Source: Eledone cirrhosa
Lineage: Eukaryota
Assembly (NCBI GenBank): GCA_964016885.1
Contig: OZ024743.1
Location: forward strand, 232,624,001 to 232,688,000
DNA: 64,000 bases
Direction: 5' to 3'
The number at the start of each line of letters is the position of its first letter. The stretch's first letter is position 1. Of the stretch, positions 4,957 to 42,798 are shown piece by piece. A program made the translations under genes and the position numbers. The notes under the pieces were generated by a model. It saw only the letters and a program-made list of their open reading frames with translations. It had not been told where the DNA came from and did not search any database.

Positions 4957-5513
4957 TATAGTAATAAACAAGAAAGACGGTCTCACTTATCCATCCCTAT
5001 TTATTTCATTATACGTATTTCGAAGACGTATGTTATTTGTTTAACATCAACCCTACGTGTTCTCATCAGATATAAGTCCACACGCGATGTAAAAATCCGT
5101 TGATATGCCGCCGGTCTTACAAGCTATTCACTTCAGCGACTGGCACGCATATGCCCAAACAAATTTCTAACTGTAGTCCTTATATGGGTGGGAGATATTT
5201 CAGTTGGCGTTCCTGTTTCGATATTTCAGTTGACGTTGCTGTTTGTGAACTGGCTAGCGTTTCAAGTTACCAGCTTGGCCGTTTAATTCTAAGTGAAGCA
5301 TGTATGAACCGTTAGTTCATTTTTTTTTCAGTGGCTGAAGTGAATAGCTCGTACGACCGGCAGCATATCAACAGATTTTTACATCTCGTGTGAACTTTTA
5401 GCTGATGAAAACAAGTAGGGCTGATGTTATATAAATGCCATACGTCTTCGAAATACATATAATAAAATGAATAGGGATGGGCAAGTGGAACCGTCTTTCT
5501 TGTTTATTACTAT
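4957..5513. mobile_element. Inverted-repeat PLE pseudo-LTR-like insert with a hammerhead in each arm
   Basis: Arms about 4957-5142 and 5329-5513 are diverged reverse complements. Each carries CTGATGA...cttcGAAAtac. The insert ends in (TA)n. Confidence 0.8.
5004..5075 (-). ncRNA. Type I hammerhead ribozyme with palindromic stem III
   Basis: ttatat-CTGATGA-gaacacgta...tacgtcttc-GAA-atacgtat-A-atgaaa. Stem II pairs at 8/9 positions and ATACGTAT is self-complementary. A second copy lies on + at about 5396-5466. Confidence 0.7.
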
Positions 5514-5911: not shown

Positions 5912-5917
<6 letters not shown>

Positions 5918-6043
5918 GAGTTAGGATCCCGACGGCTAAGCTCCGGCCGATTCGACAGCTAGATCCGAACTTACTACTGGCTTAGTTCGGATCTAGCTGT
6001 CGAAACGGCCGGAGTTCAGCCGTCGGGGTCCTGACTCTTCCCT
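5912..6043. repeat. About 130-bp fold-back palindrome
   Basis: cgacagctagatccgaact / agttcggatctagctgtcg inner arms. Shares gccgtcggggtc with 4745-4806. Confidence 0.9.
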
Positions 6044-6128
6044 ATTACCCACACTACTACCCTAAGTATCGAGTACTCTGGTGCGTTATGGTCCACCTGG
6101 TTTCTTACCACACCTTCTTCGTTATATA

Positions 6129-6160
<32 letters not shown>

Positions 6161-6161
<1 letters not shown>

Positions 6162-9100
6162 CACTGATGAGGGACTCATTTTATTACATGTTATCCATGC
6201 GCTACCTGCAGTATTTTTCTCCATATTTTATTACATATATTTACCCAAACTGCGATTCTGTGTTTTTCTCTCTCTCTCTTACTGTTCCCCCATTCTCTCT
6301 GTTTCTCCTACTTTCTTTCGCCCCCTCTGTCATGTCAGTTAGCTCTTCCTCACACTTTCACTCACTCACTGTTTCTCCTCTCTTCGCTTCATCCTGTACA
6401 CGACGAAAGCTATATTTTTCTCTCTTCTCACATGGCCCTCGTTCGTGTCAGGTCTTTTTTCTAAAGCGCTCATATATTCACCTAGCTTATGCTAAACAGA
6501 ATAATTATGAAGCTTGTTTCATTCCCCTATGGTTAGCTATACTCTTCGTTGTTCTCCTGTCTCACTCGCTTTACGCGTTTTAATTGTCCTAATAACTTAT
6601 TTTAGTTATTATTGCACCGACGTGAGGTATATGATTTTTAATGCAATGAAATATCTATGATCGTCGGCAAATCACTGATGAGGGACTCATTTTATTACAT
6701 GTTATCCATGCGCTACCTGCAGTATTTTTCTCCATATTTTATTACATATATTTACCCAAACTGCGATTCTGTGTTTTTCTCTCTCTCTCTTACTGTTCCC
6801 CCATTCTCTCTGTTTCTCCTACTTTCTTTCGCCCCCTCTGTCATGTCAGTTAGCTCTTCCTCACACTTTCATTCACTCACTGTTTCTCCTCTCTTCGCGT
6901 CATCCTGTACACGACGAAAGCTATATTTTTCTCTCTTCTCACATGGCCCTCGTTCGTGTCAGGTCTTTTTTCTAAAGCGCTCATATATTCACCTAGCTTA
7001 TGCTAAACAGAATAATTATGAAGCTTGTTTCATTCCCCTACGGTTAGCTATACTCTTCGTTGTTCTCCTGTCTCACTCGCTTTACGCGTTTTAATTGTCC
7101 TAATAACTTATTTTAGTTATTATTGCACCGACGTGAGGTATATGATTTTTAATGCAATGAAATATCTATGATCGTCGGCAAATCACTGATGAGGGACTCA
7201 TTTTATTACATGTTATCCATGCGCTACCTGCAGTATTTTTCTCCATATTTTATTACATATATTTACCCAAACTGCGATTCTGTGTTTTTCTCTCTCTCTC
7301 TTACTGTTCCCCCATTCTCTCTGTTTCTCCTACTTTCTTTCGCCCCCTCTGTCATGTCAGTTAGCTCTTCCTCACACTTTCACTCACTCACTGTTTCTCC
7401 TCTCTTCGCTTCATCCTGTACACGACGAAAGTTATATTTTTCTCTCTTCTCACATGGCCCTCGTTCGTGTCAGGTCTTTTTTCTAAAGCGCTCATATATT
7501 CACCTAGCTTATGCTAAACAGAATAATTATGAAGCTTGTTTCATTCCCCTACGGTTAGCTATACTCTTCGTTGTTCTCCTGTCTCACTCGCTTTACGCGT
7601 TTTAATTGTCCTAATAACTTATTTTAGTTATTATTGCACCGACGTGAGGTATATGATTTTTAATGCAATGAAATATCTATGATCGTCGGCAAATCACTGA
7701 TGAGGGACTCATTTTATTACATGTTATCCATGCGCTACCTGCAGTATTTTTCTCCATATTTTATTACATATATTTACCCAAACTGCGATTCTGTGTTTTT
7801 CTCTCTCTCTCTTACTGTTCCCCCATTCTCTCTGTTTCTCCTACTTTCTTTCGCCCCCTCTGTCATGTCAGTTAGCTCTTCCTCACACTTTCACTCACTC
7901 ACTGTTTCTCCTCTCTTCGCTTCATCCTGTACACGACGAAAGCTATATTTTTCTCTCTTCTCACATGGCCCTCGTTCGTGTCAGGTCTTTTTTCTAAAGC
8001 GCTCATATATTCACCTAGCTTATGCTAAACAGAATAATTATGAAGCTTGTTTCATTCCCCTATGGTTAGCTATACTCTTCGTTGTTCTCCTGTCTCACTC
8101 GCTTTACGCGTTTTAATTGTCCTAATAACTTATTTTAGTTATTATTGCACCGACGTGAGGTATATGATTTTTAATGCAATGAAATATCTATGATCGTCGG
8201 CAAATCACTGATGAGGGACTCATTTTATTACATGTTATCCATGCGCTACCTGCAGTATTTTTCTCCATATTTTATTACATATATTTACCCAAACTGCGAT
8301 TCTGTGTTTTTCTCTCTCTCTCTTACTGTTCCCCCATTCTCTCTGTTTCTCCTACTTTCTTTCGCCCCCTCTGTCATGTCAGTTAGCTCTTCCTCACACT
8401 TTCATTCACTCACTGTTTCTCCTCTCTTCGCGTCATCCTGTACACGACGAAAGCTATATTTTTCTCTCTTCTCACATGGCCCTCGTTCGTGTCAGGTCTT
8501 TTTTCTAAAGCGCTCATATATTCACCTAGCTTATGCTAAACAGAATAATTATGAAGCTTGTTTCATTCCCCTACGGTTAGCTATACTCTTCGTTGTTCTC
8601 CTGTCTCACTCGCTTTACGCGTTTTAATTGTCCTAATAACTTATTTTAGTTATTATTGCACCGACGTGAGGTATATGATTTTTAATGCAATGAAATATCT
8701 ATGATCGTCGGCAAATCACTGATGAGGGACTCATTTTATTACATGTTATCCATGCGCTACCTGCAGTATTTTTCTCCATATTTTATTACATATATTTACC
8801 CAAACTGCGATTCTGTGTTTTTCTCTCTCTCTCTTACTGTTCCCCCATTCTCTCTGTTTCTCCTACTTTCTTTCGCCCCCTCTGTCATGTCAGTTAGCTC
8901 TTCCTCACACTTTCACTCACTCACTGTTTCTCCTCTCTTCGCTTCATCCTGTACACGACGAAAGTTATATTTTTCTCTCTTCTCACATGGCCCTCGTTCG
9001 TGTCAGGTCTTTTTTCTAAAGCGCTCATATATTCACCTAGCTTATGCTAAACAGAATAATTATGAAGCTTGTTTCATTCCCCTACGGTTAGCTATACTCT

Positions 9101-10788
9101 TCGTTGTTCTCCTGTCTCACTCGCTTTACGCGTTTTAATTGTCCTAATAACTTATTTTAGTTATTATTGCACCGACGTGAGGTATATGATTTTTAATGCA
9201 ATGAAATATCTATGATCGTCGGCAAATCACTGATGAGGGACTCATTTTATTACATGTTATCCATGCGCTACCTGCAGTATTTTTCTCCATATTTTATTAC
9301 ATATATTTACCCAAACTGCGATTCTGTGTTTTTCTCTCTCTCTCTTACTGTTCCCCCATTCTCTCTGTTTCTCCTACTTTCTTTCGCCCCCTCTGTCATG
9401 TCAGTTAGCTCTTCCTCACACTTTCACTCACTCACTGTTTCTCCTCTCTTCGCTTCATCCTGTACACGACGAAAGCTATATTTTTCTCTCTTCTCACATG
9501 GCCCTCGTTCGTGTCAGGTCTTTTTTCTAAAGCGCTCATATATTCACCTAGCTTATGCTAAACAGAATAATTATGAAGCTTGTTTCATTCCCCTATGGTT
9601 AGCTATACTCTTCGTTGTTCTCCTGTCTCACTCGCTTTACGCGTTTTAATTGTCCTAATAACTTATTTTAGTTATTATTGCACCGACGTGAGGTATATGA
9701 TTTTTAATGCAATGAAATATCTATGATCGTCGGCAAATCACTGATGAGGGACTCATTTTATTACATGTTATCCATGCGCTACCTGCAGTATTTTTCTCCA
9801 TATTTTATTACATATATTTACCCAAACTGCGATTCTGTGTTTTTCTCTCTCTCTCTTACTGTTCCCCCATTCTCTCTGTTTCTCCTACTTTCTTTCGCCC
9901 CCTCTGTCATGTCAGTTAGCTCTTCCTCACACTTTCATTCACTCACTGTTTCTCCTCTCTTCGCGTCATCCTGTACACGACGAAAGCTATATTTTTCTCT
10001 CTTCTCACATGGCCCTCGTTCGTGTCAGGTCTTTTTTCTAAAGCGCTCATATATTCACCTAGCTTATGCTAAACAGAATAATTATGAAGCTTGTTTCATT
10101 CCCCTACGGTTAGCTATACTCTTCGTTGTTCTCCTGTCTCACTCGCTTTACGCGTTTTAATTGTCCTAATAACTTATTTTAGTTATTATTGCACCGACGT
10201 GAGGTATATGATTTTTAATGCAATGAAATATCTATGATCGTCGGCAAATCACTGATGAGGGACTCATTTTATTACATGTTATCCATGCGCTACCTGCAGT
10301 ATTTTTCTCCATATTTTATTACATATATTTACCCAAACTGCGATTCTGTGTTTTTCTCTCTCTCTCTTACTGTTCCCCCATTCTCTCTGTTTCTCCTACT
10401 TTCTTTCGCCCCCTCTGTCATGTCAGTTAGCTCTTCCTCACACTTTCACTCACTCACTGTTTCTCCTCTCTTCGCTTCATCCTGTACACGACGAAAGTTA
10501 TATTTTTCTCTCTTCTCACATGGCCCTCGTTCGTGTCAGGTCTTTTTTCTAAAGCGCTCATATATTCACCTAGCTTATGCTAAACAGAATAATTATGAAG
10601 CTTGTTTCATTCCCCTACGGTTAGCTATACTCTTCGTTGTTCTCCTGTCTCACTCGCTTTACGCGTTTTAATTGTCCTAATAACTTATTTTAGTTATTAT
10701 TGCACCGACGTGAGGTATATGATTTTTAATGCAATGAAATATCTATGATCGTCGGCAAATCACTGATGAGGGACTCATTTTATTACAT
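6161..10788 (+). mobile_element. Tandem array of 9 x 511-bp units plus 29-bp terminal redundancy, inserted in (TA)n; retrozyme/PLE pseudo-LTR-like
   Basis: Unit starts at 6161, 6672, 7183, 7694, 8205, 8716, 9227, 9738 and 10249, with partial unit 10760-10788 (tcactgatgagggactcattttattacat). (TA)n on both sides. Each unit contains CTGATGAG and GAAA motifs. The tandem structure is certain; the mobile-element call is inferred. Confidence 0.8.
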
Positions 10789-10815
10789 ATATATATATAT
10801 ATATATATATATCTA

Positions 10816-10886
10816 TTACTGGGGGTAATGTCAAATATTTAGTGTACAGCTGAAATAGACCTGCTTGCATGTATTGAGTGTTCAAG

Positions 10887-10918
<32 letters not shown>

Positions 10919-11126
10919 CATAATCGGAGAAAGCTAATAGCGATACTCCGGCCAAATTCCAACTCACTCAACAAACATTAGGAATTACCTGGGTATATTC
11001 CTAATTAAACGTTCGGGGTGCTAACTAATTGTATTGTGTGGAAAATTGGCTGTATCATTTCATATGAGATATACCAAATATATCCCTTCCCAGACGGACG
11101 TCTCGTTTCATTATAATATTTCTACA

Positions 11127-11163
<37 letters not shown>

Positions 11164-11233
11164 TTGAACACTCAACACGTGCAAGCAGGTCTATTTCAGC
11201 CACACACTAAATATTTGACATTAACCCCAGTAA
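10816..11233. repeat. 73-bp inverted repeat pair enclosing a (TA)n-flanked nested insert
   Basis: 10816-10888 versus 11161-11233 are reverse complements. An unrelated segment of about 215 bp lies between the TA tracts. Confidence 0.85.
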
Positions 11234-12050: not shown

Positions 12051-12116
12051 GTGAGGTTTTTTTTACAAAATGAAAAATAACCGAAGTGTCCTACACGAGT
12101 GAAAGTATGAAGAAAA

Positions 12117-12360
12117 AAAGATGAAATCGAAAATGCAACTGAAGTCTTATTTTTTAAAAAATATATATATTTATTTGGTTCCTTTACCGGTTTCGCAGTT
12201 CTTCTGCTTTTCAAAAGTAGAGTTGAGATGGAGGGTCTGTGGTTTTTCTCCATCTCAACTCTACTTTTGAAAAGCAGAAGAACTGCGAAACCTGTAAAGG
12301 AACCAAATAAATATATATATATTTTTTTAAATAAGACTCCCGCTGCATTTTCGATTTCAT

Positions 12361-12455: not shown

Positions 12456-12770
12456 AGTGTGTGTTTATGTAATTTTCAAAACACAAATCAATCAAAATAT
12501 ATCTGGATGCCTTTATTAGTTTTTGTAATGGATAAATTGCACAACATTAAAAATGCTGGCTTTTAAAAATGTATCAGACTCGAAAGACGTGTAAAAACAT
12601 CAGCACACGCAAACAAATAAAAGAGACTAAAAAACGAATATTGAAGCCATTATTGGTTTTTAAAGGAAGTTATCATTGTACGCTGTTGCAGGAAATATTT
12701 TTTATATCATTGATTGTGTTGTTATTATTATTGTGTTCTTATTATTATTGTTAATGGATTATTATTAGTT

Positions 12771-13430
12771 CGGGCGGTGGATTGACAGTATTGGAAGAAC
12801 GCCGGTTAATATACTTTACGGCATAGAGATACGACCCTTCATGGTCTAAGTTCAAATCTTGCCTAGGTTACTTTAACTTTCATCCTTACGGTGTCGATAA
12901 AATAAAGTACCAGTAATGCACTGGGGTCGAATTAATTGACTTTCCCCTCTCCCAAATTACTGGCCTTGTGCCTATAGTAGAAATCCTTATTATTGTCAAT
13001 GGATTATTATTGTTGCTAGTAATTATTGTTGCTAGTAATGCACTGGGGTCGATTTAATCGAATTTCCTCTCATCCAAAATTGCTGGCCTTATGCCTAGAT
13101 TAGAAACCATTATCAGTGTTAGTATTGAAGGCAAATGGCTTAATGGTTAGGTTACTAAACTTACAATCTTAAGATCGTGAGATCAATTCGCGGTGGTGTA
13201 TTGCGATCTTAAGCAAAACACTTTATAAAGAGAATTGATAAAATGTCGGATGACATAAGATAATTTTCAGGCCTTTTACGATCTGTGTTCAAATCCTACC
13301 GAGGTCAAATATACCTTTCAGCCTGCCACGGTCGAGAAACTATAGTATTACTCAAGCACTGGGGTTGATATAATCGACTTACCCCTCCCTTGAAATTGTT
13401 GACGTAATACCTAAATTAGAGACTATTAAT
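12771..13430 (+). mobile_element. Cluster of older SINE family A copies/fragments and one different tRNA-type SINE head
   Basis: Copies at about 12771-12990, 13030-13110 and 13240-13425 carry the extra ggggtcgatt..atcgact..cccct segment. A separate head lies at about 13128-13205. Confidence 0.75.
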
Positions 13431-13620
13431 AATTGTTTCTACTTTTGGCACAAGGCCAGTAATTACCCAGTGCGTTACTAGTACTTTATTTTATCGACCC
13501 CGTAAGGATGAAAGGCAAAGTTTACCTCGGTGGGATTTGAACTCAGACGATAAAGGACTGTAACTCTATGCTGCAAAGCATGGTGTCCAACTCTCTACCG
13601 ATACTGCCAATCTAACACCC
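13430..13620 (-). mobile_element. SINE family A copy with TSD
   Basis: Consensus match. TSD agactattaataat. Confidence 0.9.
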
Positions 13621-13935
13621 TAGACTATTAATAATGTTAGTTTTTCGTCATGTAATTATTACTTTCTCTTTTAAATTTGTTCTTCATGTTATTTCTGCTG
13701 CCCTCTTTCACAATTTCTATTTTTTAACTTATTTTGCTTTACATTTATTGTTTCTGCAAGTTTTAAAGGTCGGATAGTATTTGTTCCGACTCTTTTCTCT
13801 ATACGTTCAAATCTCTCCTTTCACCCTTTATGTGGGTCGATAAAATATAGTAGCAAAGTAAGGTCGATGGAATTGATTTTAACCCCACCCAACTTACTGT
13901 TTTTTGTGTTAAAATTAAAAAGCATTATTACTTCA

Positions 13936-14325
13936 CGGACAGTGGATTGGCAGTATCGGTAGAGGGTCGGACATGCTTTCCAGCATAGTTACGTCCCTTT
14001 ACGATCTGAGTTCAAATCCCGCCGAGGTTGACTTTGCCTTTCATCCTTACGGGGTCGATAAAATAAAAGTACCAGTAATGCACTGGGTAATTGCTGGCCT
14101 TGTGCCTAAAGTAGAAACAATTATTACTTTCACGGACAGTGGATTGGCAGTATCGGTAGAGAGTCGGACACAATGCTTTGCAGCATAGTTACGTCCGTTT
14201 ACGGTCTGAGTTCAAATCTCGCCGAGGTTAACTTTTGCCTTTCATCCTTACGAGGTCGATAAAATAAAGTACCAGTAATGTACCGGAATAATTGCGGGCC
14301 TTGTGCCAAAAATAGAAACAATTAT
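13936..14325 (+). mobile_element. Head-to-tail dimer of SINE family A
   Basis: Copies at 13936-14122 and 14134-14325. Both are preceded by attact(t)tcac and share the unusual start ggacagtggattggc. Confidence 0.9.
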
Positions 14326-14778
14326 TACATTCACATTTATTTTTTTATCAAACAATGTAGTCTTTTTATGAGAGGAAATTGGGAAGCGGGTTGGCGATCC
14401 GGTAACTATTTGTAGTAGATTTAACAAACTTGTAGCAGATCTCATTTTGACACATTTACCTGTGTTCATTCTTGTGGTTACTGCTGTTGTTGTCTTTGAT
14501 GATTTTATTATTGTTATTGTTTAGCCCCAGATCAGCAGTAACTGGGCAATCTTATGATCAAATTCTTTCCTGTTATAACAACCTCTTTATTAGCAGAGTA
14601 TCTAGGCCGACAATGACGGGGAATTGAGAAGTTCACTTCTCAGCAGTTTCATTTAAGATTTAATCAAACTAAGCTCGACTGCCTGGAAATGAAATTTGCT
14701 AGACAGAAACTGTACGGAGGGACCGTTAGCGGGTTTTTTTCTGTTAGAGTAGGTTGCTAATTTTATTGTTCTGATGTT

Positions 14779-16351: not shown

Positions 16352-16559
16352 CGTTTCTGAATTTGTTTAGCAAGATTCTTTATCTGAAAACGTGTGTTGA
16401 AACCGATATTGTTATACTTTGGGAGGGTCAAGTTTCCAATAAGAAACACACGCACCAGTTGCTTTCACTTCAATTTATTATAATAAATTTATAAATTTAG
16501 GAATTTATAAATTTCCGGTTGGTGGGTTGGTTCCACAACCAGATAGTTGTTTATATATT

Positions 16560-16602
16560 GTCAAAGTTCTTTCGTCACATATTCTGTGACATCTTCAGTG
16601 AC
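16560..16602 (-). ncRNA. Minimal type I hammerhead ribozyme (PLE)
   Basis: gtca-CTGAAGA-t-gtcaca-gaata-tgtgac-GAA-ag-aa-ct-T-tgac. Stem I 4 bp, stem II 6 bp, vestigial stem III. Confidence 0.8.
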
Positions 16603-16802
16603 TGGGGTTCTTTTCTTTGTTTTTGTGCCTCTCCTTTGTTCTGTCCTACGCCATCTTGTTTCTGTGTGTGTGTTGTGTGCTCAGTCTGCGCATGCGCCAC
16701 ATCCGGGTGTCTGTGTGTGTTTATATTCGTTTATTTATTTGTTTATTTACATGTTACTGGTTAGTTGTTTGTTCTATGTGCGTGTGTGTTTTCATTTTGT
16801 CC

Positions 16803-17491
16803 TTAATTGTAAGTTGTGATGTTGCTGTTCCACTCATGTCTTCTATTTAATTTTGGTTGTGATTCTTTTATCTTTATTGCCTCTGTGATTTGTCTAAACA
16901 TTGCGTCATTTCTGTGTGTAGATTCTATTTTTATTTCTATGTTCTCTAATTTACCCTTATGTTCTATTTTAGCATGTTGGTAGAGTACAGATGATTCATT
17001 ACTATCTTGAAGGTCTCGCCAGTCTTCATTTATCCGTTCCCCTATACTACGAGCTGTCTCACCTATGTACACTATATTTTTATCTCCACATTGTCCTTCA
17101 GTACATCTTATGCTATATACTACATTTCTAGTTTTACAGTTTATATGGGGGCTTAATTTACAGGTTATACATTTCTTAACTATACAGGGGTCTTTGAAAA
17201 GGGTATGTCTTGCTAATAAGTGTTTTTATGGAGGTACCTGGTCTTTCTACTATCTTAATATTGAGTTTATGTTTATCTAGGGCCCTTCTAAATTTGTAAG
17301 CTAATTCACCTCTAGGGGATGTATCGATGAACATTACACTCTGGTATTTATTGCTATCATACCATGAGTTTATTCTATTAGCCTTATTCCTAGTTCTTTC
17401 TATTCTATTCCAAAATTTGCTCCTATACAAGGGGCAGGTCCCATTTGTGTCATTATTTACCATTTTTTCGCATTTGGTTCTGGCTCCTCTA
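16803..17491 (-). pseudogene. PLE ORF 3' part (linker + GIY-YIG endonuclease), inverted copy, frameshifted
   Basis: Cys-rich linker, then NVVYSIRC...YIGETARSIGERINE...SVLYQHAKIEH...RQITEAIKI...PKLNRRHEW. Confidence 0.9.
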
Positions 17492-18410
17492 AAACAAATC
17501 CTCCATTCCCATTATGCCAAACCCATGACTTCCAAATATCTGATCCACCGAAACTCAGCTGTTTCGGACCATACCAAAATCAACATACTGATTGTGGATT
17601 TGGTACGGGTGATGAGAAACGTGTCCCGCATGTGCAACCCGAAGAACTAGAGAAACACATACAACACTTCATCCACCGTATGCAGTTCTCTGGTTACAAT
17701 CAGAGAGATAAAATCAGAGTGTATAGAGAAGCCAGAACCAAATGGAAAAAAATGGTAAATAATGACACAAATGGGACCTGCCCCTTGTATAGGAGCAAAT
17801 TTTGGAATAGAATAGAAAGAACTAGGAATAAGGCTAATAGAATAAACTCATGGTATGATAGCAATAAATACCAGAGTGTAATGTTCATCGATACAACCCC
17901 TAGAGGTGAATTAGCTTACAAATTTAGAAGGGCCCTAGATAAACATAAACTCAATATTAAGATAGTAGAAAGACCAGGTACCTCCATAAAAACACTTATT
18001 AGCAAGACATACCCTTTTCAAAGACCCCCTGTATAGTTAAGAAATGTATAACCTGTAAATTAAGCCCCCATATAAACTGTAAAACTAGAAATGTAGTATA
18101 TAGCATAAGATGTACTGATGGACAATGTAGAGATAAAAATATAGTGTACATAGATGAGACAGCTCGTAGTATAGGGGAACGGATAAATGAAGACTGGCGA
18201 GACCTTCAAGATAGTAAAGAATCATCTGTACTCTACCAACATGCTAAAATAGAACAAGGATAAATTAGAGAACATAGAAATAAAAATAGAATCTACACAC
18301 AGAAAAGACGCAATGTTTAGACAAATCACAGAGGCAATAAACATAAAAGAATTACAACCAAAATTAAATAGAAAACATGAGTGGAACAGCAACATCACAA
18401 CTTACAATTA
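17492..18410 (+). pseudogene. PLE ORF 3' part (RT thumb, linker, GIY-YIG), frameshifted
   Basis: HYAKPMTSKYLIHRNSA...RVMRNVS...FIHRMQFSGY...PLYRSKFW...FIDTTPRGEL...KIVERPGTSIK, then a decayed GIY-YIG (YIDETARS). Frameshifts near 17635, 18025 and 18258. Confidence 0.9.
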
Positions 18411-18612
18411 AGGACAAAATGAAAACACACACGCACATAGAACAAACAACCAACCAGTAACATGTAAATAAACAAATAAATAAACGAATATAAACACACA
18501 CAGACACCCGGATGTGGCGCATGCGCAGACTGAGCACACAACACACACACAGAAACAAGATGGCGTAGGACAGAACAAAGGAGAGGCACAAAAACAAATA
18601 AAAGAATCCCCA

Positions 18613-18655
18613 GTCACTGAAGAGATCACAGAATATGTGACGAAAGAACTTTGAC
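18613..18655 (+). ncRNA. Minimal type I hammerhead ribozyme (PLE)
   Basis: gtca-CTGAAGA-gatcaca-gaata-tgtgac-GAA-ag-aa-ct-T-tgac. Predicted cleavage 3' of 18651. Confidence 0.78.
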
Positions 18656-18939
18656 AATATATAAACAACCATCTGGTTGTGGAACCAACCAACCAACCGG
18701 AAATTTATAAATTCCTAAATTTATAAATTTATTATAATAAATTGAAGTGAAAGCAACTGGTGCGTGTGTTTCTTATTGGCAACTTGACCCTCCCAAAGTA
18801 TAACAATATATATATATATATATATATATATTTAACGAAGGGTATAAATAAGAAATAGTTATTGTTAGATGGATTAACAAAGTTGTTAGATGTAATAACA
18901 AGAATAAAAATTTAGTTTATATATGGTTTACTTCACATG

Positions 18940-24144: not shown

Positions 24145-24145
<1 letters not shown>

Positions 24146-24325
24146 GAAGTCATCGGATATATATAGTTGTGATGGAGGTATAGTCAATATTGGGCCTTTG
24201 AAACCTTAGATAGTGTTTCTGCTCCGAAATACCAATGAAAGTTGGAAGTTGGAAGATCACTGATGAAGGACTAATTTTATTCATATGTAACCCATGTGCA
24301 ACCACGCAGCTCTCCATTTTTCTAA

Positions 24326-24330
<5 letters not shown>
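24145..24330 (+). mobile_element. Diverged single-copy relative of the 511-bp unit, in (TA)n
   Basis: atcactgatgaaggactaattttattcatatgtaacccatgtgcaacc aligns with atcactgatgagggactcattttattacatgttatccatgcgctacc. The upstream gaggtata...gaaatac arrangement is also shared. Confidence 0.7.
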
Positions 24331-24401
<71 letters not shown>

Positions 24402-24478: not shown

Positions 24479-24714
24479 CATATATATATACACATATATA
24501 TGTGTGTGAGTGTGTGTGGAGAGAGAGAGGGGGGAGAGAAGGGGGGGGGGGAGAAGGTGAAATTGGAAATATATTTAAGGGTCTGTTTTTCTTTTTTTTT
24601 TCCTTTCTTTGATTCGTCAAAGTGACATTATTGAAAAAATGAGAAAGACAATTCTTTTAAAAAAAAGAGTTTTATAATGTATATAAAGTATAACTGGTTT
24701 CGATGTATTATTCG

Positions 24715-24903
24715 ATGGATTGGTAGTATCGGTAGAGGGTCCGAAGCCATGCTTTGCAGCAATGAGTTACGGCCTTTTATGGTCTGAGTTCAAATCCCGC
24801 CGAGTTTAACTTTGACTTTCATCCTTACGGGGTCGATAAAATAAAGTAGCAGTAATACACTGGGGTGATTGCTGGCCTTGTGCTAAAAGTAGAAACAATT
24901 ATT
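24715..24903 (+). mobile_element. SINE family A copy
   Basis: Consensus match from head to gtagaaacaatta. Confidence 0.9.
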
Positions 24904-25064
24904 AAAATTAATCTTATCAATTAATGTTGAATTAAAAAGAATTAATAAGAATTAAAAACTAAAAATTAAATTTTAAATTAAATGTTGAGGCGAGTTTTAT
25001 TCATCTTCCCTGTTGAGAAGGAGACTGGAAATATTATATATAAATATATATGTAAATATATATT

Positions 25065-27004: not shown

Positions 27005-27272
27005 ATAATTTCTGAAAGTTTCTGAAAGTTCGTTCGTCACATATTTTTTCTGTGACATCTTCATCTAAATTATTTATAAAAATATAAATATTTAGTGAAT
27101 TGAAGCGAAAACCAAATCAAACGATGAGTGTGTTTGATATTCTTTTTAGCAATATTAGGACATGACTCTCCCTAACTATAACAATATCTGTTTCAACACA
27201 CGATTTCATATAAAAAACCTTGCAAAATAAATACATCGCCGTCAAAGAAACGTAAATTAATAAAATATATAT
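27005..27272. mobile_element. Old rearranged fragment of the 16.3-18.8 kb PLE family (inverted hammerhead + 3' tail)
   Basis: Minus strand atgaagatgtcacag...tgtgacgaacgaacttt (decayed HHR). Plus strand tgactctccctaactataacaatatctgtttcaacacacg matches the PLE 3' end. Confidence 0.75.
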
Positions 27273-27276
27273 ATTA

Positions 27277-27495
27277 GTTTCTGATTTAAGCTTAAACCCA
27301 ACAATTTTAGGGGAAGAGAAAATCGATTAAATCGACTGCACTGCATTACTGGTACTTTATTTTATCGACCCCGTATGGATGAAAGGAAAAGCTAAACTCG
27401 ATAAGATTTGAACTCAGAACGTAAAGGAAGAGGAGTAACTCTATGCCATAAATCATGCTGTCCGACGTTCTGCTGATACTACCAATCCACCGCCC
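27277..27495 (-). mobile_element. SINE family A copy (older subtype)
   Basis: Consensus match ending ccaatccaccgccc. Confidence 0.85.
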
Positions 27496-27749
27496 GTCAT
27501 AAACAAATTAATATTGAAGGAAAGAATAAGAAGTCAGTCCGCAGTGACTTACGATATATTAACGTACATGAATATTTAAAGGGGAGAGAATCAATATAGA
27601 AAATATCCTCATATATTCTGTTTTACTATATCCTGTTGTGATCATATATTTCGTAAACTGTTCAACTTCAACTATTATATTTTTAATTATTTACAAAGTA
27701 GTTTAGAGTGCAGAATCATCTCACCTGTCCTGTAATTACTGCTGTATGT

Positions 27750-27823
<74 letters not shown>

Positions 27824-27995
27824 GTGCGTGTGCGCGCGCGCGTGTGTGTGTGTGGCCGTGCGTATTTCTTCGTTGATTTTGTTTTTTGTGTTTTTCTATT
27901 TTAGTTCATATTGAGAAAAATAACAACTGAAATATTTGACAGGTCTAGTTGGTGCTGTTGTTATTGCGTAATCTCTAATAGAGGGTAAAATAGAG

Positions 27996-28585
27996 TACAT
28001 GCCAAACTGTACAGGCAACACCATCAAAGCAATCAACGGCAGTGATATCAACCAAGTCAAGGATTTCAAGTATCTTGACTCCTGGATAATGGACTCTGAG
28101 AAGGATTTCGCAACCAGAAAGGCCCAAGCATGGTCATCTTGCAACAAGATGGATCGAGTGTGGCGCTCAAATCTTTCCAATCACACCAAGATCAGACTCT
28201 TCCAATCTTGCTATATGGAAGTGAACCATGGACGCTTTCATCCAAACAACAAAAGCACCTTGATGGCACTTACACTCGCATGCTTCAACGCATTCAGGAC
28301 ATAAGCTGGGGACATCTGCCTTTGAGAGAGATATATGCCGGCCTCCCACGCATATCTGTCGTTGTACGTAAAAGGAGAGTAAGATTTGCTGGCCACTGCC
28401 ATCGTGCCATCTACAATGATGTGTCCCCATTAGTGCTTTGGAAACCACAAGCAGTGATTAATAACAGGGGGCGCAATTTCTCCTACTCCGATGTCATCAC
28501 CAGAGATTCTGATAATGAACGACAGACCCACGTGGAGATCAATTGTTGAGTCCATTTCGACTGAGGCCGCCGGATGATGATGATG
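27996..28585 (+). mobile_element. 5'-truncated RTE-clade LINE with (GAT)n tail and TSD
   Basis: VKDFKYLDSWI...RKAQAWSSCNKMDRVWRS...LLYGSEPWTL...LDGTYTRML...RVRFAGHCHR, with a frameshift. Tail (gat)4. TSD aatagag at 27989-27995 and 28586-28592. Confidence 0.9.
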
Positions 28586-31040: not shown

Positions 31041-31897
31041 TGCAAGGATTTTGACATGAAATCGTGTGTCTAAACAAATATTGTTTTGCTTGGGGAGGGT
31101 CATATTGTTATAATAATATTGCCAGAATTATTAACAGAACACACTCACTGTTTGGTTGGTTTTCGCTTCTGTATCTTTTATATCAGTTAATTTATACGGT
31201 CCTCAATGTTTACCATTGCCTGACCAACGGTCAGTCAATGGTAAACATCGTCAGTGGTGCTATTATGTTTCCTCTTGTTGTATTGTATGTCTACGCCATC
31301 TTTATTTAATCTGTCTATTTATTTATTTATTTATTGTTTTATTGTTTGCTAAACAGAAAAAAATGAATGGAATAACAACAACACCCAAACAAACAATACT
31401 GACCTAAGAGAAATATAAATAAATAAATAAATATATACACGAGCACAATAACAACAAACACATATAAGCACACACTAGTAAACTAAGATAGAATACAATA
31501 ACCAAAACAGTCACTCTAACGCGAACACACATCAAACACTATACACACACGCAAACGCAGGCGCAGAGAAGAAGACAAAAATAAATAAATAAATAAATAG
31601 ACAGATTAAATAAAGTTGGCGTAGACATGCAATACAACAGGAAGAAACATAATAGCACCACTGACGATGTTGCAGATGTGCAACGAAAGAACTGTGTTAG
31701 ACTATATATATGTGTTTGTGTCTATATTATATCTGTATTTTTTACCGTTGGTCTGTCAATGGTAAACTTTGAGGACCGAATAAATTAACTGATATAAAAG
31801 ATACAGAAGCGAAAACCAACCAAACAGTGAGTGTGTTCTGTTATTAATTCTGGCAATATTATTATAACAATATGACCCTCCCCAAGTATAACAATAT
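31041..31897. mobile_element. Non-coding fold-back PLE pseudo-LTR insert related to the 16.3-18.8 kb element
   Basis: Arms about 31078-31330 and 31580-31897 are reverse complements. The 3' end tgaccctccccaagtataacaatat|(TA)n is nearly identical to 18785-18809. Carries an HHR. Confidence 0.85.
31657..31698 (+). ncRNA. Minimal hammerhead motif, probably inactivated
   Basis: acca-CTGACGA-t-gttgca-gatg-tgcaac-GAA-ag-aa-ct-G-tgtt. Same layout as 18613-18655 with a different stem II. Position 17 is G. Confidence 0.7.
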
Positions 31898-31993
31898 ATA
31901 TATATATATATATAGCAGATGATTCAGGAAATTTCGAGCATGTGCACCCCAACGCCTATGGCAATAATGACAGGCGATCATTATAAATAATAG

Positions 31994-32104
31994 TTCAAAT
32001 CCCGCCGAGGTTAAATTTGCCTTTCATCCTTACGAGGTCGATAAAATAAAGTACCAGTAATGCACTGGGTAATTGCTGGCCTTGTGACAATAGTAGAAAC
32101 AATT
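31994..32104 (+). mobile_element. 5'-truncated SINE family A with TSD
   Basis: TSD attataaataatagtt on both sides. Confidence 0.88.
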
Positions 32105-32377
32105 ATAAATAATAGTTGAGAAAATCGTGTAAATTACCCTTGGGGACGAAACGATGTGCACAGAGGCACCTTTGGCCACAAGAGAATGTTATTATTAGCA
32201 CAACATTGTATGTGTCAAGCAGAATGGAAGGTATAACTAAACGTGTCAGTCTAAGTTGGCCACATAATTAATTAAATTATACATTTCTAGGCTAGAACCA
32301 TCCTTTATATTAAATTTAAGGTAAATTTAAAGTAAATATAACGACATTCTTTATTTAGAAAATTTCTCTGTAGTAAA

Positions 32378-32650
32378 TAATTGTTTCTACTTTTGGCACA
32401 AGGCCATCAATTACTCAGTACATTACTGGTACTTTATTTTATCAACTCCGTAAGGATGAAAGGTAAAGTTAACCTCGGCGGGATGAACTCAGACTGTAAA
32501 GGGCCATAACTCTTTGCTGCAAAGCATGGCGTCTGACCCTCTACCGATACTACCAATCCACCCCTTCTACCGATACTGCCAATCTACCGCCCCTGTAGAA
32601 AATAATTGTTTCTGCTTTTGGCACAAGGCCAGCAATTACCCAGTGCATTG
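32378..32650 (-). mobile_element. SINE family A copy with duplicated head segment plus a second tail fragment
   Basis: Copy at 32378-32593 (ctaccgatact.ccaat repeated) and fragment at 32603-32650. Flanking repeat ctgtag.aaataatt. Confidence 0.85.
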
Positions 32651-32769
32651 AAAATAATGATATGGTGTTATCTTCAGCTCAGAAGATAATACTCTCATAA
32701 AGTCAATCTTATATGTTTTTCTGTGTACAGAGTAATACTTGAAAGTGTTAACGCTTCATTCTTTTCAAT

Positions 32770-33780
32770 GTCATTTGCCTTTCATTCTTACGGTGTGGAT
32801 AAAATGAAGTACCAGTAACGCACTGGTGTCAATTCAATCGTCTTCCTCTCCCCCAAAAGTGTTGGCCTTGTGCTTAAATAAGAAACCATATATTAGAATG
32901 GTTTAGAACAGTGAATTAGTAAAGTCGTTTGAGCGTCAGACAGTTGCTTTTCTACATATATTTAAGCTCTTTACTGCCCGAGTTCAAATCCTGAACTTAA
33001 TGAACCAGTCAAGCACTGAAGATCGATGTAATTGCTGGACTAGTGCCTATACTTGAAATCCTTGTTTGGTTAGCGTTTGATTGGCAGTATCGGTAGAGAA
33101 TCTCACACCATGCTTTACATCAGAGAGTTACGTCCCTTTACGGTCTGAGTTCAAATCCCGCCGAGGTTAACTTTCCCTTTCATCCTTACGGAGTGGATAA
33201 AATAAAGCACCAGCAATGCACTGGGATAATTGCTGGCCTTGTGCCAAAGTAGAAACAATTATTAGGTTAGCAGTGTCGGTAGAGCATCAAACACCATGCT
33301 TAGCAGCATAGAGTTATGTCCCTTTACGTTATGTGTTCAAATCCCACTGAGGTTAGCTTTGCCTTTCATCCTTACAATACCAGTAATGAACTAGGATCGA
33401 TTAAATCGACTTTCCTATCCCCTTCAAATTGCTGGCCTTGTGCCTAAAGTAGAAATTATTATTAAACTGATATTCTATTTGTTGGCCACGAAAGTATAAA
33501 AGGAAAATTTTCCTCGCCAAGATTTGAATACAGAGCCTACAAAGCGAGAACAAATACCATAATGTATTATATCTGAGGCTTTAGCAATTGAAACAATACA
33601 CCACTATTTCATCGGTAGAGGGTCGGACGCCATGCTTTCCAGCATAGTTACGTCCCTTTATCGTCTGAGTTCAAATCCCGTCGAGGTTAACTTTGCCTTT
33701 CATCCTTATGGAGTCGATAAAATAAAGTACCAGTAATGTACTGTGTAATTGCTGGCCTTGTGCCAAAAGTAGAAACAACT
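32770..33780 (+). mobile_element. Dense cluster of about 5-6 SINE family A copies/fragments
   Basis: Copies at about 32770-32890, 32900-33060, 33080-33262, 33265-33462 and 33610-33780. Confidence 0.85.
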
Positions 33781-34167
33781 ATTTCAGAAAATTCCTATAC
33801 CGTTAATTAAGAAATTGGAGTCACAATTTGGTAGATATTTATTATTTATATGGATACTTTTCATTTCTTGCTGTTCTACAACAAATATAGGTATATAATG
33901 GCCTTATATTCACAAATGTTGACATGTATATTTTAGGAATATGAAATTGTTTCTATACAAAAGGCCTTGTTGGGACATCTGTTGTAGGTGAAATGAATGG
34001 AGACTTTGGTGTATGTGGTTCCAAAATTATAAATCTACAAATTGCAAATTTATTGATGCACATACAATGGGGTAACACTCAAAGAAACACATACGGTTAT
34101 ATATACAGATAAAATTTTCTCGCAACCATACACACACACACATATATATATACATATACACACACTA

Positions 34168-36647: not shown

Positions 36648-37757
36648 GTGATATACTCCCCATATATTTTGTTACACGCTGATGCAACCGGTTAATCCCT
36701 ACCCCACTCATAGCTCACACAGAACACTAAGTCGTGATACTTTTCTTATACACCACATTTTATATAACGGTATATAAAAAAAAATCGCTTTGAGTTCAAA
36801 TCTCGACAATATCAACTTTACTTTTCATCCTTTCGAGGTCAGTAAATAACAATTGCAGTCCAGGTGATGGGTTTTGCAATGATTTAAATGCTCAAGACAC
36901 GTCGCTTTTTTTTTCTAGACGGCGCCACAACGACACCGTCATGAGTTAAGATATGTTTGCTTTTTTGTAGTATCGAGTGGAGAATTAATCATTCATAACT
37001 CAATGTAAAGCATAGGATAAAAGTTCGAATCTGGCTGAAGCTAATGTATTTTATCTTGTATGTATGAAACGAATGAGTTGGCCTATTATTTATAATAATC
37101 TACAGGATAAGCAATGTACTTCAAAAATAGACTCTGTGTCTCACAGTGACGATTAACACAATTTCGGAGAAGATAATTATTTTCAATACCGAAACCTATA
37201 TTTTATGTGGATTCGAACCTTCACCTTATGCTTTCATCTATAAACAATAATTAATTATGTGTACATCACTCCTACAAAGAAAACTAAAGTAGGAAAAATT
37301 GAAGTATTTTATAAAATCTAAAGAAGTAAGAGAGTGAGTGTATAATAGCATGACTTGGGAAGGCTTCACGCTGAATCGCAAATTAAAATTACGAAGGTTT
37401 TTTAGCTTTGGTCACAGCTGAGACTTGACTACGTGGTAGAATAATTCTGTTGCATAATAGATATTACTTTCATCTTTACCAAACAAAGATTCCTCATTAG
37501 AGTCAATGAATTTCCTCGGTATCGAAAATAACATCTAATTGTATTTAATATCAAGGGCGGTGCTACAGCATGGCCTCAACCGGATGGCTGGAATAGGTAA
37601 GAGAGTAAAAGAATATGTCCCATCTGTAGGGTATCATTTAAATGCACACCTAGAGACGAGTTAAATTATCTCATTTGCTAACTGTGTTGTTGTTGGTATT
37701 ATATTATGTTTGCTGTTGCAGGTGAGGCTTAAATGGTAAGATCTATTGCCAAAGCAC

Positions 37758-37873
37758 TGAGTTCAAATCCCGCCGAGGTTAACTTTGCCTTTCATCCATA
37801 CGGGGTCGATAAAATAAAGTACCAGTAATGTACTGGGTAATTGCTGGCCTTGTGCCAATAGTAGAAACAATTA
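37758..37873 (+). mobile_element. 5'-truncated SINE family A
   Basis: ctgagttcaaatcccgccgagg...gtagaaacaatta. Confidence 0.9.
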
Positions 37874-38619
37874 TAGTTATAGTCACATTCTATTTTATAT
37901 TCAAAACAATTGTATCAGAGATTATATTATCAAATACGCCTTTTTTGTAATACTACAACTGTGATCTAAGGTAACTATTTTAACAGGTCATGTGTCTGGT
38001 ATTTCCACACTGGCTTGATATTTAAAACCGGTGGAATTTAGCTATTAAAACCAAAATTTAGATTTCTTTCAATTTTAAATGTATGAGAATGATAATTATA
38101 AAAACATCTGCAGTGATATAGAAATTCACAAAACAAAAATCTCGTTACTACTTTACATTCTTTTAATTTATACGTTTATTTATTTATCAGTTAGTTATAT
38201 TCATTATATATAGATTATCATGTTTTGTAAATTTTCTAATTGAATATTTTTTTTTAAATATGCATTTTATATCATTATTCACGTAAACATGTATATGTAT
38301 AGAGAAAATGTTTATATCAGAGAATGGTATACAAAGCCACAAATTAATCAATGTATTCTAGACGAAAAGCAATAAAAAAAAGTCAGTATCAAAAATTCAA
38401 TAAATTTAACATTAAACAAATATGGGAAATCTGTAATATTTCACTTTTAAGTTGTTTGTTTTCCTACAGCAAGAAATGTACAATCTTGTGTACATTTACA
38501 GAGTTAATAGTGTATATTTACCTCTATCAATAAACCACTATTAGACAAGATATTGCACTTCGGATCCATCAATGACTAAAGGTTAAACCTAAATTACTAT
38601 ACCCGAAGAATGCTTCTGT

Positions 38620-38894: not shown

Positions 38895-39575
38895 CGCATT
38901 CTCCATAAGCTTAAATGTAGATTCCCAAACCACGCTATCGGCCTATATCGCGACGACGGTCTTTCTTTGGCACACCATTGCAGCAGATACGCCCTAGACA
39001 GGTTTCGTAAGGATTTAATAGACACCCTTAACATCCTAGCTCTTAATATAACAGCAGACACGAACATTTACTAGCGCAGACTTACTTGAGGTCAACTTAT
39101 CAACGGGTACACATAAGCCTTACAATAAGCTGAATGAAACACTAAAATATATGTACAGAGGAACCCGCCAACCACCTACGGTTTTTAGTAATCTAGTACC
39201 TAATATTATCCGTAGAATCTCGAACTTGTTGTCTAATAGAGAGATATTTGAGAAGACAGCGCTGTACTCCAACAAGGCCCTCTTAGATATACGTCAACCT
39301 AAGAATGATTTCTAGTATAGGCATAAGGCCAGTAATTTGGTGGAAGAGGAAAGTCGATTAAATCAATCCCGGTACGTTACTGGTACTTTATTTTATCGAC
39401 CCCGTAAAGGATGAAAGGCAAAGTTAACCTCAGCGGGATTTGAACTCAGAGAGTAAAGGGCCGTAACTCTATGCTGCAAAGCATGGTGTCTGACTCTCTA
39501 CCGATACCGCCAATCCACCGCCCAAGACGTCAATCTAAGAATAGAAATAGAAAAAGGAAAATAATCTTGTTCACC
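38895..39575 (+). pseudogene. Decayed RT of a second Penelope-like clade, interrupted by a SINE
   Basis: IGLYRDDGL (RT catalytic motif)...RFRKDLI...LNITADTN...LSTGTHKPYNKLNETLKY...PPTVF.NL...RRISNLLSNREIFEK...RNRKRKIILF, with in-frame stops. Confidence 0.8.
39305..39523 (-). mobile_element. SINE family A inserted in the PLE remnant, with TSD
   Basis: TSD acgtcaa(c/t)ctaagaat. Confidence 0.9.
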
Positions 39576-40882: not shown

Positions 40883-41024
40883 ATATTTATTAAAAATAAC
40901 AGATTAAAGTTTAAGCAAAGAATCGCTGTTTTCCCCCTTAACGGGATCTTCTTAGTTAGTCTCAGAAGATCCCGTTAAGGGTGAAAGCAGCGATTCTTTG
41001 CTTAAACTTTAATCTGTTATTTTA

Positions 41025-41032
<8 letters not shown>
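40883..41032. repeat. 150-bp fold-back palindrome adjoining (TA)n
   Basis: Centre gggatcttct-tagttagtctc-agaagatccc. A single-arm homologue lies at 21517-21590. Confidence 0.9.
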
Positions 41033-41106
<74 letters not shown>

Positions 41107-41128
41107 TGTATATATGTATACTATATAT

Positions 41129-42303
41129 GTTGGTGTCTCTGGAAGGTTACTACAGTGGATCAAATGTTTCCTGACAGGCAGAACCCAGCATGTTGTAGTC
41201 GAAGGAGTAAAATCAAGCCCTGCCAAAGTCAGCAGTGGCGTCCCACAACGCACTGTGTTGGGTCCACTTCTTTTCATCGTCTACATTAATGACATTACTG
41301 ACATCATCAAACACAGCAACATCAGAATCTTCGCAGATGATTCCAAGCTCCAAAGGGTCATCAATGAGGTGGGTGACCGGACTTGCCTTCAGTCAGACCT
41401 ACTGGCTGTTATCCAATGGGCAGAAATGAATAATATGCTGTTGAATGAGGATAAATTTGAACTAATCCACTTTGGAAAAAAGGATGCCCTGAAACTACCA
41501 TACTCTCTTCCTTCGGGTGAAACTCTAATGGCTTCCAATAACATCAGAGACCTGGGAGTAATTGTGGACAACAATATAAGCTGGGCCACTCATATAAACA
41601 CCAAAGTTGATATGGCCCGCAGAATGTGTTCCTGGATTCTCAGAACATTCCAGTCGAGAGATATCCACACTGTTGTCCTTCTCTTCTCTACCTTTGCGCC
41701 CCCCACCTTGAATACTGTTGTCCACTGTGGTCATCCCACACGAAACAAAGTATCATGAAAGTTGAAGCAGAACAAAGGTCAATTACAAAAAAGATAGTTG
41801 GCATGACAGGCCGTGACTATTGGGGTCGATTAGAAAAGCTCAAACTTTATTCTCTTCAACGTCGCCGTGAGCGTTACATTATCTGCATGATGTGGAAAAT
41901 ATACCATCAGCTTAGCCCAAATTATGTTGGCATCACCTTTAGTGTACACCCGAGGCTTGGGCCCCGTGCTATTCGCTCACGACAGAAATCCCACTCGCAT
42001 CACATAACAACAATACGGCAACAATTATTTCACCTTAATTGGCCCTGCACTCTTTAACATTACACCAAAACACATCAAAGCAGAGACAGACCCCATCCAG
42101 TTCAAGAAGACTTTGGATAAATTCCTTCAAGAAATCCCGGATAGGCCTCCTACACCCGGATATGCCTCCGTAAAAAATAACTCTCTGCTCGAGTGGGCCA
42201 TGGTGCCCAAACACTGATTTGTAAGACTTCGCCAGGTGGTGGTATTAAGTTAGACAAGGCCTTGGCCAATACTGGCCGAAACCTATCAAAGTTATCAAAG
42301 TTA
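41129..42303 (+). mobile_element. 5'-truncated CR1/L2-group LINE (RT C-terminal half), one frameshift, in (TA)n
   Basis: SGVPQRTVLGPLLF, FADDSK, KFELIHFG, RDLGV; frameshift near 41700; then PHLEYCCPLWS, LYSLQRRRERY. Tail (tatcaaagt)2. Confidence 0.93.
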
Positions 42304-42431: not shown

Positions 42432-42798
42432 ATATACGATATTAACAAATGGAAACTATATTTATAAAACCATATTTATTTCATTATACATATTTCAAGG
42501 ATACCAAGTTAAATTGTGGTGTGCTTTCGTTAGACAAAATATAATATAGATCAGTTTTACAAATAAATAGTGACATACCCTTAAAAAATGCAACCATTAC
42601 TGTTGGAAGCTCCCGGGAGCTTCCAACAGTAATGGTTGCATTTTTTGAAGGGTATGTCAATATTTATTAGTAAAACTGATCTATATTATATTTTGTCTGA
42701 CGAAAGCACACCATAATTTAACTTGGTATCCTTGAAATATGTATAATGAAATAAATATGGTTTTATAAATATAGTTTCCATTTGTTAATATCGTATAT
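42432..42798. repeat. 367-bp spacerless palindrome adjoining (TA)n
   Basis: Centre ...ttggaagctccc|gggagcttccaa... at 42614/42615. Arms of about 183 bp with few mismatches. Confidence 0.95.

Follow-up and report, generated by a model that had tools for sequence, protein, structure and literature searches.

A nine-unit, period-three array in Eledone cirrhosa with a predicted split hammerhead at every unit junction: a possible product of a Naiad-related retrozyme

How does a short tandem array come to hold three slightly different units that recur in perfect register three times over? The question is raised by a 64,000-nucleotide stretch of the Eledone cirrhosa assembly GCA_964016885.1 (contig OZ024743.1, positions 232,624,001 to 232,688,000 of the forward strand; hereafter the window, in whose coordinates all positions are given). 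The window is animal-like, microsatellite-rich DNA with no N, and holds nine 511-bp units (GC about 0.39) in tandem. A first-pass annotation had placed an exact higher-order trimer at 6161..10759, with four diagnostic single-nucleotide polymorphisms (SNPs) repeating in period three. Alignment of the nine units, cut from 6161, bears out the periodicity: 4 of 511 columns vary, at unit positions 201, 228, 250 and 370, and all four of the motifs quoted for them match. The nine units do occupy the interval given, but the exact repeat reaches further, from 6160 to 10788, which amounts to 9 x 511 + 29 bp (30 if the common A at 6160 is included). The parts of the array and its flanks are as follows.

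6160..10788, plus strand: whole array, 9 x 511 bp with 29-30 bp of redundancy, exact extension at lags 511, 1533 and 3066
6161..7693, plus strand: trimer copy 1 (A 6161-6671, B 6672-7182, C 7183-7693; diagnostic sites 6530, 6872, 6899, 7432)
7694..9226, plus strand: trimer copy 2, same sequence as copy 1
9227..10759, plus strand: trimer copy 3, same sequence as copy 1
10760..10788, plus strand: 29-bp overhang, in which the array start is repeated and the ninth ribozyme completed; its size is near that of the 30-40 bp PLE (Penelope-like element) tail (PMC8557442)
6123..6161, no strand: left (TA)n tract, putative insertion target
10787..10816, no strand: right (TA)n tract

The three haplotypes are CTCT (A; units 1, 4 and 7), TGCC (B; units 2, 5 and 8) and CTTC (C; units 3, 6 and 9). 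Within the array there are 22 mismatches at a lag of 511 and none at 1533 or 3066. The trimer copies are identical across 3,095 compared positions, against pairwise differences of 3, 2 and 3 sites per 511 among A, B and C, which upholds the earlier claim that a slightly diverged trimer was triplicated recently. Given three copies of each haplotype, a perfect period of three is found in 6 of 1680 possible orders. Each monomer holds one or two private alleles, none of them common to two monomers, and three of the four variant alleles are C-to-T on the plus strand. Private alleles in each monomer together with zero changes between trimers suggest a two-stage history, in which the monomers aged apart by about 0.5% and the trimer was copied afterwards; the pattern fits independent ageing followed by one copying event. 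The array consists of three trimer turns plus a short terminal redundancy. (TA)n directly abuts it at both ends, with an AT dinucleotide common to array and tracts. There are no hybrid or odd units at the ends of the array, and no (TA)n at its internal joins. Tandem Repeats Finder did not output the array because its period limit was 500.

Perfect identity of this kind could also come from an assembly or library artefact, with fewer trimer copies at the true locus, and assemblies are known to go wrong in tandem repeats (PMC9977147). Such an artefact, which the first-pass annotation had allowed for, could change the copy number but can hardly make the C-to-A adjacency, which needs the phasing of alleles 631 bp apart and is impossible from a lone ABC + 29 bp. 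The longest out-of-phase exact run in the array is 510 bp, and long accurate reads are suggested by the window itself, which has no N and in which a 20-kb satellite with near-identical 5-kb blocks is resolved. An artefactual origin is very improbable.

A hammerhead-like structure is very probably conserved at the unit junctions. Its predicted elements, together with a hairpin that precedes it, are given below for the first junction.

6611..6681, plus strand: predicted split hammerhead, the first in a series of 9 identical copies spaced at +511, with 4 helices 6/6 paired at 9/9 junctions
6611-6616 and 6642-6647, plus strand: stem II 5' strand IIa and its partner IIb
6617-6622 and 6662-6667, plus strand: I-II helix and its partner, 6 Watson-Crick pairs, G+C-rich
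6625-6630 and 6651-6656, plus strand: stem III strand IIIa and its partner IIIb
6631, 6632-6637 and 6669-6674, plus strand: H17, stem I strand Ia and its partner Ib
6648-6651 and 6675-6681, plus strand: GAAA and core (CUGAUGA)
6631..6632, plus strand: predicted self-cleavage site after AUA, placed by structural analogy only
after 7142, 7653, 8164, 8675, 9186, 9697, 10208 and 10719, plus strand: further predicted cut sites
6590..6611, plus strand: 8-bp hairpin upstream of the ribozyme, every 511 bp, pair probability 0.96-1.0

At 9 of 9 junctions the blocks stand in the order S-G-C, and the CUGAnGA core, GAAA, U16.1-A15.1 and H17 are all present (the position numbers 10.1, 11.1, 15.1, 16.1 and 17 are those we take to apply to hammerheads). 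The 5' strand of stem II is separated from the core and placed upstream; the motif opens with this strand and closes with the core, and the I-II helix occupies the place of the helix that connects stem I with stem II. None of the four SNPs falls inside the predicted hammerhead. The S-G-C order with 6-bp stems I and III arose in 0 of 20,000 shuffles of the unit. With the core held fixed, stems I/III of 5/5 bp arose in 3 of 20,000 shuffles and of 6/6 bp in 0 of 20,000. When the 40 nt upstream were shuffled 100,000 times, stem II with the I-II helix at 6+6 bp arose in 61 cases. The descriptor, though, was made after the sequence had been viewed and these nulls therefore overstate the case; the comparison with Naiad elements described below is the independent test.

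Other readings of the junction were tried and rejected. The type I, II and III hammerheads are not formed, with no GAAA after the core, and a stem II placed directly after the core has only 1 pair in that register, its 6-bp partner lying upstream at 6611-6616. Elsewhere in the window, an S-G-C match at core 4540 was discarded for its overlapping helices, and type I-order matches at 42697 and 35268 have a stem II that is weak or absent. An Rfam scan of 6000-7900 at E up to 10 gave 14 matches, all on the (TA)n flank and 0 to ribozymes, and a scan of 1-43,500 at the gathering score gave 0 matches. The Rfam scan also missed the minimal type I hammerhead of a PLE remnant in the window, so that its blank result says little.

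According to Craig et al. (PMC8557442), Naiads, which are Penelope-like elements, insert preferentially at (TA)n, have a tail of 30-40 bp and are without canonical hammerheads. Eight Naiads are described there with a 'half core' and with GAAA 35-50 nt away on either side, and for Naiad_Ovul (TA)n insertion is recorded together with an 'HHR_half_core' that is left unexplained. The supplement text of that paper (File S5) was compared by eye, with record names assigned by table order. The displayed 3' ends of Naiad_Obim and Naiad_Ovul have an upstream hairpin and four ribozyme helices as in the unit, in the same order. The 12-nt stretch 6595-6606, which contains the loop of the 6590-6611 hairpin, is identical in both Octopus records. 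By hand count, 17 of 22 ribozyme-helix pairs are changed on both sides relative to the Octopus Naiads (stem II 5/6, stem I 6/6, stem III 4/5, I-II helix 2/5). The two Octopus records have the canonical G10.1-C11.1, a GUA site and, like published SGC forms, a spacing of 13 nt, whereas the unit has A-U and 16 nt. The unit body is C/T-rich, unlike the Octopus Naiad 3' untranslated region shown, which suggests that the unit comes from another family or that only the ribozyme domain is common. Naiads have a (TA)n target and a 30-40 bp tail; the array has (TA)n on both flanks and a 29-30 bp overhang, but (TA)n is common in the window.

Among the other 3' ends displayed in that supplement, five records (Parc, Nbra-3, Hcon, Hpol and Smim) hold the whole of a type-CSG hammerhead, stems I-III and I-II helix included. 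Among the half-core Naiads, 7 of whose 8 ends were compared, four have a complete CSG (Parc, Nbra-3, Hpol and Smim) and one is split (Ovul); Esco has S-G-C order with stems I and III and an unclear stem II, and Dst-3 has nothing clear. Of the records that carry no half-core label, Hcon is CSG and Obim is split, and Omin, Adux, Sdum and the record before Obim show no hammerhead in the few hundred bases displayed. Given the equivalent layout of the Octopus Naiad 3' ends, the unit is, judging from sequence, most likely a non-autonomous, Naiad-related retrozyme.

The content of the unit accords with a non-autonomous element. No open reading frame (ORF) for an endonuclease or reverse transcriptase (GIY-YIG + RT) is present in the 511-bp unit, which makes it at most a non-autonomous Naiad partner, and no tRNA genes were found. 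The unit does contain a 150-codon open frame, which has no Pfam match and no homologues among 272 candidates, and whose length was reached by 5% of 2000 shuffles. A coding role for this frame, in which 3 of the 4 SNPs are synonymous (P = 0.11), was rejected. Within the 64 kb, one diverged relative of the unit and one broken GIY-YIG PLE (16410-18805) were found. The relative, and a pair of short motifs in the unit, are located as follows.

24145..24331, plus strand: single diverged relative of the junction region, with a (TA)n tract on each side; core and GAAA kept, stem I broken
6178..6236, plus strand: two copies of a 12-nt A/T-rich motif, at unit positions 18-29 and 65-76, 47 nt apart

The relative aligns with a local score of 94, compared with a shuffled mean of 33 and maximum of 56 (n=300). 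Its upstream partners pair over 4 bp (stem II) and 5 bp (stem III), and no stem I follows the cut site; it has probably decayed. The right end of the array lies 69 nt past a predicted cut site, where the 12-nt motif has its first copy, and the relative ends within the second copy. By analogy, the two motif copies and these ends resemble the pair of internal start sites by which the PLE tail is defined (PMC11167929), and the motif pair is a candidate for the sites at which reverse transcription starts. The broken PLE has its GIY-YIG region in two inverted arms of 1084 bp that are 97.8% identical, each arm with a minimal type I hammerhead (cores at 16598, minus strand, and 18617, plus strand), the second of which has an altered stem II. 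A search with the PLE fragment gave 2 hits, which pointed to no particular clade.

Predicted folding bears on whether the junctions would cut themselves. In minimal junction RNA the nested helices are the best predicted structure. Opening the ribozyme-ready state costs 5.7 kcal/mol in the short context and 11.5-13.7 kcal/mol in the full-unit context, as computed by programs in which the pseudoknotted stems I and II are not scorable together with the remaining helices. Such a high opening cost in the long context leads slow, partial cutting to be expected. Several features of the junction count against an active ribozyme. Nested-only folding in 511-nt context gives the hammerhead helices a probability of about 0.01, the unit has A10.1-U11.1 where all published SGC rows compared have C before GAAA, the distance from cut site to GAAA is 16 nt instead of the 13-14 nt of published SGC forms, and the backbone forms a tight double link between the far ends of the I-II helix and stem III.

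A junction structure that is conserved but non-cutting is the alternative; it could be a hammerhead-derived structure for PLE-protein binding or for a start site, or could cut only with protein help. The chain is broken between A9 and 10.1, and the far end of the I-II helix is joined through both strands to that of stem III, a link called hard to fit (PMC10085705); there is also a precedent in the PAc hammerhead, which cut only with protein (PMC11167929). However, the core, GAAA, U16.1-A15.1 and a non-G at 17 are kept in the window and in both Octopus records despite helix turnover, and a type-CSG ribozyme with a 2-nt link at the equivalent place was active (PMC10085705). A non-cutting junction is judged rather unlikely, and the modelled junction ribozyme is, by a modest preference, probably active.

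One of the diagnostic alleles may touch on cutting. The T-to-G allele of unit B (6899, unit position 228) completes a 9-bp helix against B's own ribozyme strand, and this blocking helix is predicted at -14.1 vs -8.3 kcal/mol; the spread among the three junctions in full context is no more than about 1-1.5 kcal/mol. That one SNP in B could bias multimer cutting, or trimer length, is a weak lead. A self-complementary duplex between neighbouring junctions was rejected, as it was equalled in 70 of 1000 shuffles.

How, then, was the trimer copied three times? The favoured model, held tentatively and at slightly short of an even chance, is rolling reverse transcription of a 1533-nt trimer RNA circle through three turns by a Penelope-type enzyme, with insertion into a (TA)n tract. 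Copying of a trimer template yields the period-three pattern by construction. In this model, an older tandem array elsewhere would have aged until neighbouring units held one or two private changes. Read-through RNA would then be cut at some junctions only, because the ribozyme competes with other folds, and a trimer-length piece would be ligated into a circle. Synthesis would start internally, 69 nt after a cut site, at an A/T-rich motif next to (TA)n DNA that had been nicked; the enzyme would displace its own cDNA through three error-free turns and stop inside the ribozyme, 41 nt short of a cut site. Parts of this scheme have precedents. In animals, circular RNAs are produced from tandem hammerhead repeats, and in axolotl dimers and trimers persist where the ribozymes are weak (PMC7229834); PLE reverse transcription starts at two internal sites (PMC11167929).

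A number of points weigh against the trimer circle. The strongest, and one that applies to any RNA route, is that cephalopod Naiads are described as long inactivated (Craig et al., PMC8557442). The PLE remnant in the window is broken and has no detectable sequence in common with the unit, and a relaxed S-G-C search fails on the relative at 24145-24331. The published passages that bear on the matter show monomer circles and multimer bands, not circular multimers. In the sole PLE studied in vitro (PMC11167929), the main template is unprocessed linear RNA, the ribozyme is dispensable and the start site is not homologous to the target. Finally, (TA)n is frequent in the window (83 tracts, 5.8% of 1-43,300), which makes the flanks of the array weak evidence of targeting.

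Some of the same observations favour a linear template. A linear transcript of a pre-existing (ABC)n source array may have been reverse transcribed in a single pass that began internally and ended near a 5' end cut by the ribozyme, or the enzyme may have jumped repeatedly between linear trimers; the unit and its ribozyme would be unchanged. The left array end, 41 nt from the predicted cut site, is natural for a linear 5' end, the unprocessed RNA that serves as main PLE template in vitro is multi-copy (PMC11167929), and non-autonomous Chlamys PLEs make multicopy head-to-tail insertions (PMC8557442). On the other hand, a linear template merely moves the origin of period three to another locus, and no (ABC)n source locus lies within the window. 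Joins made by template jumps need not be exact, yet both internal C-to-A joins are. A linear template is judged unlikely. The rolling of a trimeric RNA circle, as proposed in the first-pass annotation, draws independent support from the hammerhead predicted at each junction, from the resemblance to the 3' ends of Naiads, and from the (TA)n site together with the 29-30 bp overhang, but the linear transcript fits nearly equally well.

Amplification at the DNA level is the ordinary route to higher-order repeats and needs no active helper element. Either a 1533-bp extrachromosomal circle was rolled or ABC was expanded in place to ABCx3 by unequal exchange, the ribozyme being a passenger from an earlier insertion, and the 28-mer satellite in the window, with its recent 5110-bp block duplication and exact runs up to 1602 bp, is a precedent. 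However, in-place exchange from a lone ABC needs the 29-bp overhang for its first doubling, where one- and two-unit offsets offer 540-1051 bp of homology. In simulated unequal sister exchange starting from ABC + 29 bp, the exact ABCx3 was obtained in 712 of 74,410 nine-mers, and in 252 of 75,015 when a 20-bp minimum homology was imposed (a yield of 0.3-1.0%). A model of mutation with gain and loss exchange, run at 12 settings, reached a perfect period of three types in 54 of the 85,662 states that qualified, which are non-independent (0-0.7% per setting). These simulations cover unequal exchange, not a DNA circle, and do not include gene conversion or mismatch rejection, which tempers what they say in favour of the RNA circle. 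The clean array ends and the internal joins free of (TA)n also speak against a DNA-level route. Local unequal exchange, another option of the first-pass annotation, is disfavoured in simple simulations, and DNA-level amplification as a whole is distinctly unlikely.

The rest of the window is rich in repeats. The 28-bp satellite extends over 20 kb (43200-64000) and has recent block duplications at spacings of 5110, 4138 and 5344 bp. Fold-back elements, with arms 87-95% alike or near-perfect and often bounded by (TA)n, lie at 5914-6030, 4961-5510, 10816-11233, 12100-12350 and 31082-31893, and two of them closely flank the array. A dispersed family of about 200 bp, whose copies are 70-95% alike and in some cases head to tail, occurs at 1830-2230, 12758-13637, 13904-14345, 24713-24905, 27269-27497, 31992-33786, 37757-37910 and 39300-39528, and is presumably a tRNA-derived short interspersed element. 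Broken reverse transcriptase fragments resembling those of long interspersed elements lie at 27972-28549 and 41006-42057; 41111-41755 matches Pfam RVT_1 (E 1.8e-07), and 27972-28549 is without a Pfam match.

Taken together, these data permit a broader proposition, possible though doubtful: that Naiads carry non-circularly permuted hammerheads (nematodes and a spider having CSG, and cephalopods an active form in which the core has come away from stem II and which falls outside the six permutations considered possible), that these power a retrozyme whose multimeric RNA circles write higher-order repeats in one step, and that the array is the fossil of three turns round one trimer circle. If this were true, a hammerhead topology would break the assumed contiguity of core and stem II, non-circular hammerhead permutations would be placed in animal genomes, and there would be a possible answer to why Naiads seem to be without hammerheads. 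Type I descriptors are blind to CSG and split forms, and retrozyme surveys based on type I would therefore miss the whole class. Phased alleles in a short array would be a direct genomic read-out of template size and turn number. They would open to test the rolling reverse transcription of retrozyme circles, so far proposed and unproven, and would supply an RNA route by which higher-order repeats could form. The period-three pattern alone, if it came from DNA exchange, would be ordinary; the weight of the finding lies mostly in the ribozyme and the Naiad link and less in the periodicity itself.

Higher-order repeats and retrozymes are both already known. In satellite higher-order repeats, multimer copies resemble one another more closely than do the monomers of which they consist, as is also the case here. 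Unlike such satellites, the array has three multimer copies only, sharp element-like ends in microsatellite and no gradient of decayed units, and its lack of hybrid units does not suit a long array kept by repeated exchange. The unit is comparable to animal non-LTR (non-long terminal repeat) retrozymes, which are non-coding tandem units of about 150-1000 bp with GC < 45% (PMC7229834; bioRxiv 10.64898/2026.07.22.740005), have one hammerhead per unit, occur in genomes with PLEs and are proposed to arise by rolling reverse transcription of circles; Li et al. link tandem hammerhead repeats to PLEs (bioRxiv 10.64898/2026.07.22.740005). However, non-LTR retrozymes are defined by a type I (CGS) hammerhead, which the unit lacks. 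Period-three phasing of retrozymes is absent from the relevant passages of bioRxiv 10.64898/2026.07.22.740005 ('higher-order' 0, 'trimer' 0), whose supplements may list similar arrays, and the literature covered, with few subscription papers, describes neither permuted hammerheads in Naiads, nor a core separated from stem II, nor retrozyme multimers in phased arrays.

The closest comparison is with the permuted hammerheads of Eckert et al. (2023; PMC10085705), who defined six permutations by assuming that the core and the stem II strand are inseparable. The SGC and CSG forms were validated from metatranscriptomes and metagenomes, with none, in the passages concerned, from the genomes of known organisms. 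The junction motif lies outside these six permutations: published SGC and CSG forms keep core and stem II strand together, whereas the unit has the stem II strand first and the core last. It has the S-G-C blocks, CUGAnGA core, GAAA, U16.1-A15.1, H17 and I-II helix of type SGC, but lacks a stem II after the core, G10.1-C11.1 and the 13-14 nt spacing; it also departs from the type-CSG order (core, stem II strand, cut site, GAAA) in that the core comes last in the motif. As modelled, the motif is a circularly permuted CSG whose opening lies between A9 and 10.1. A CSG circle opened at that point falls outside both SGC and CSG, and would likely work like both.

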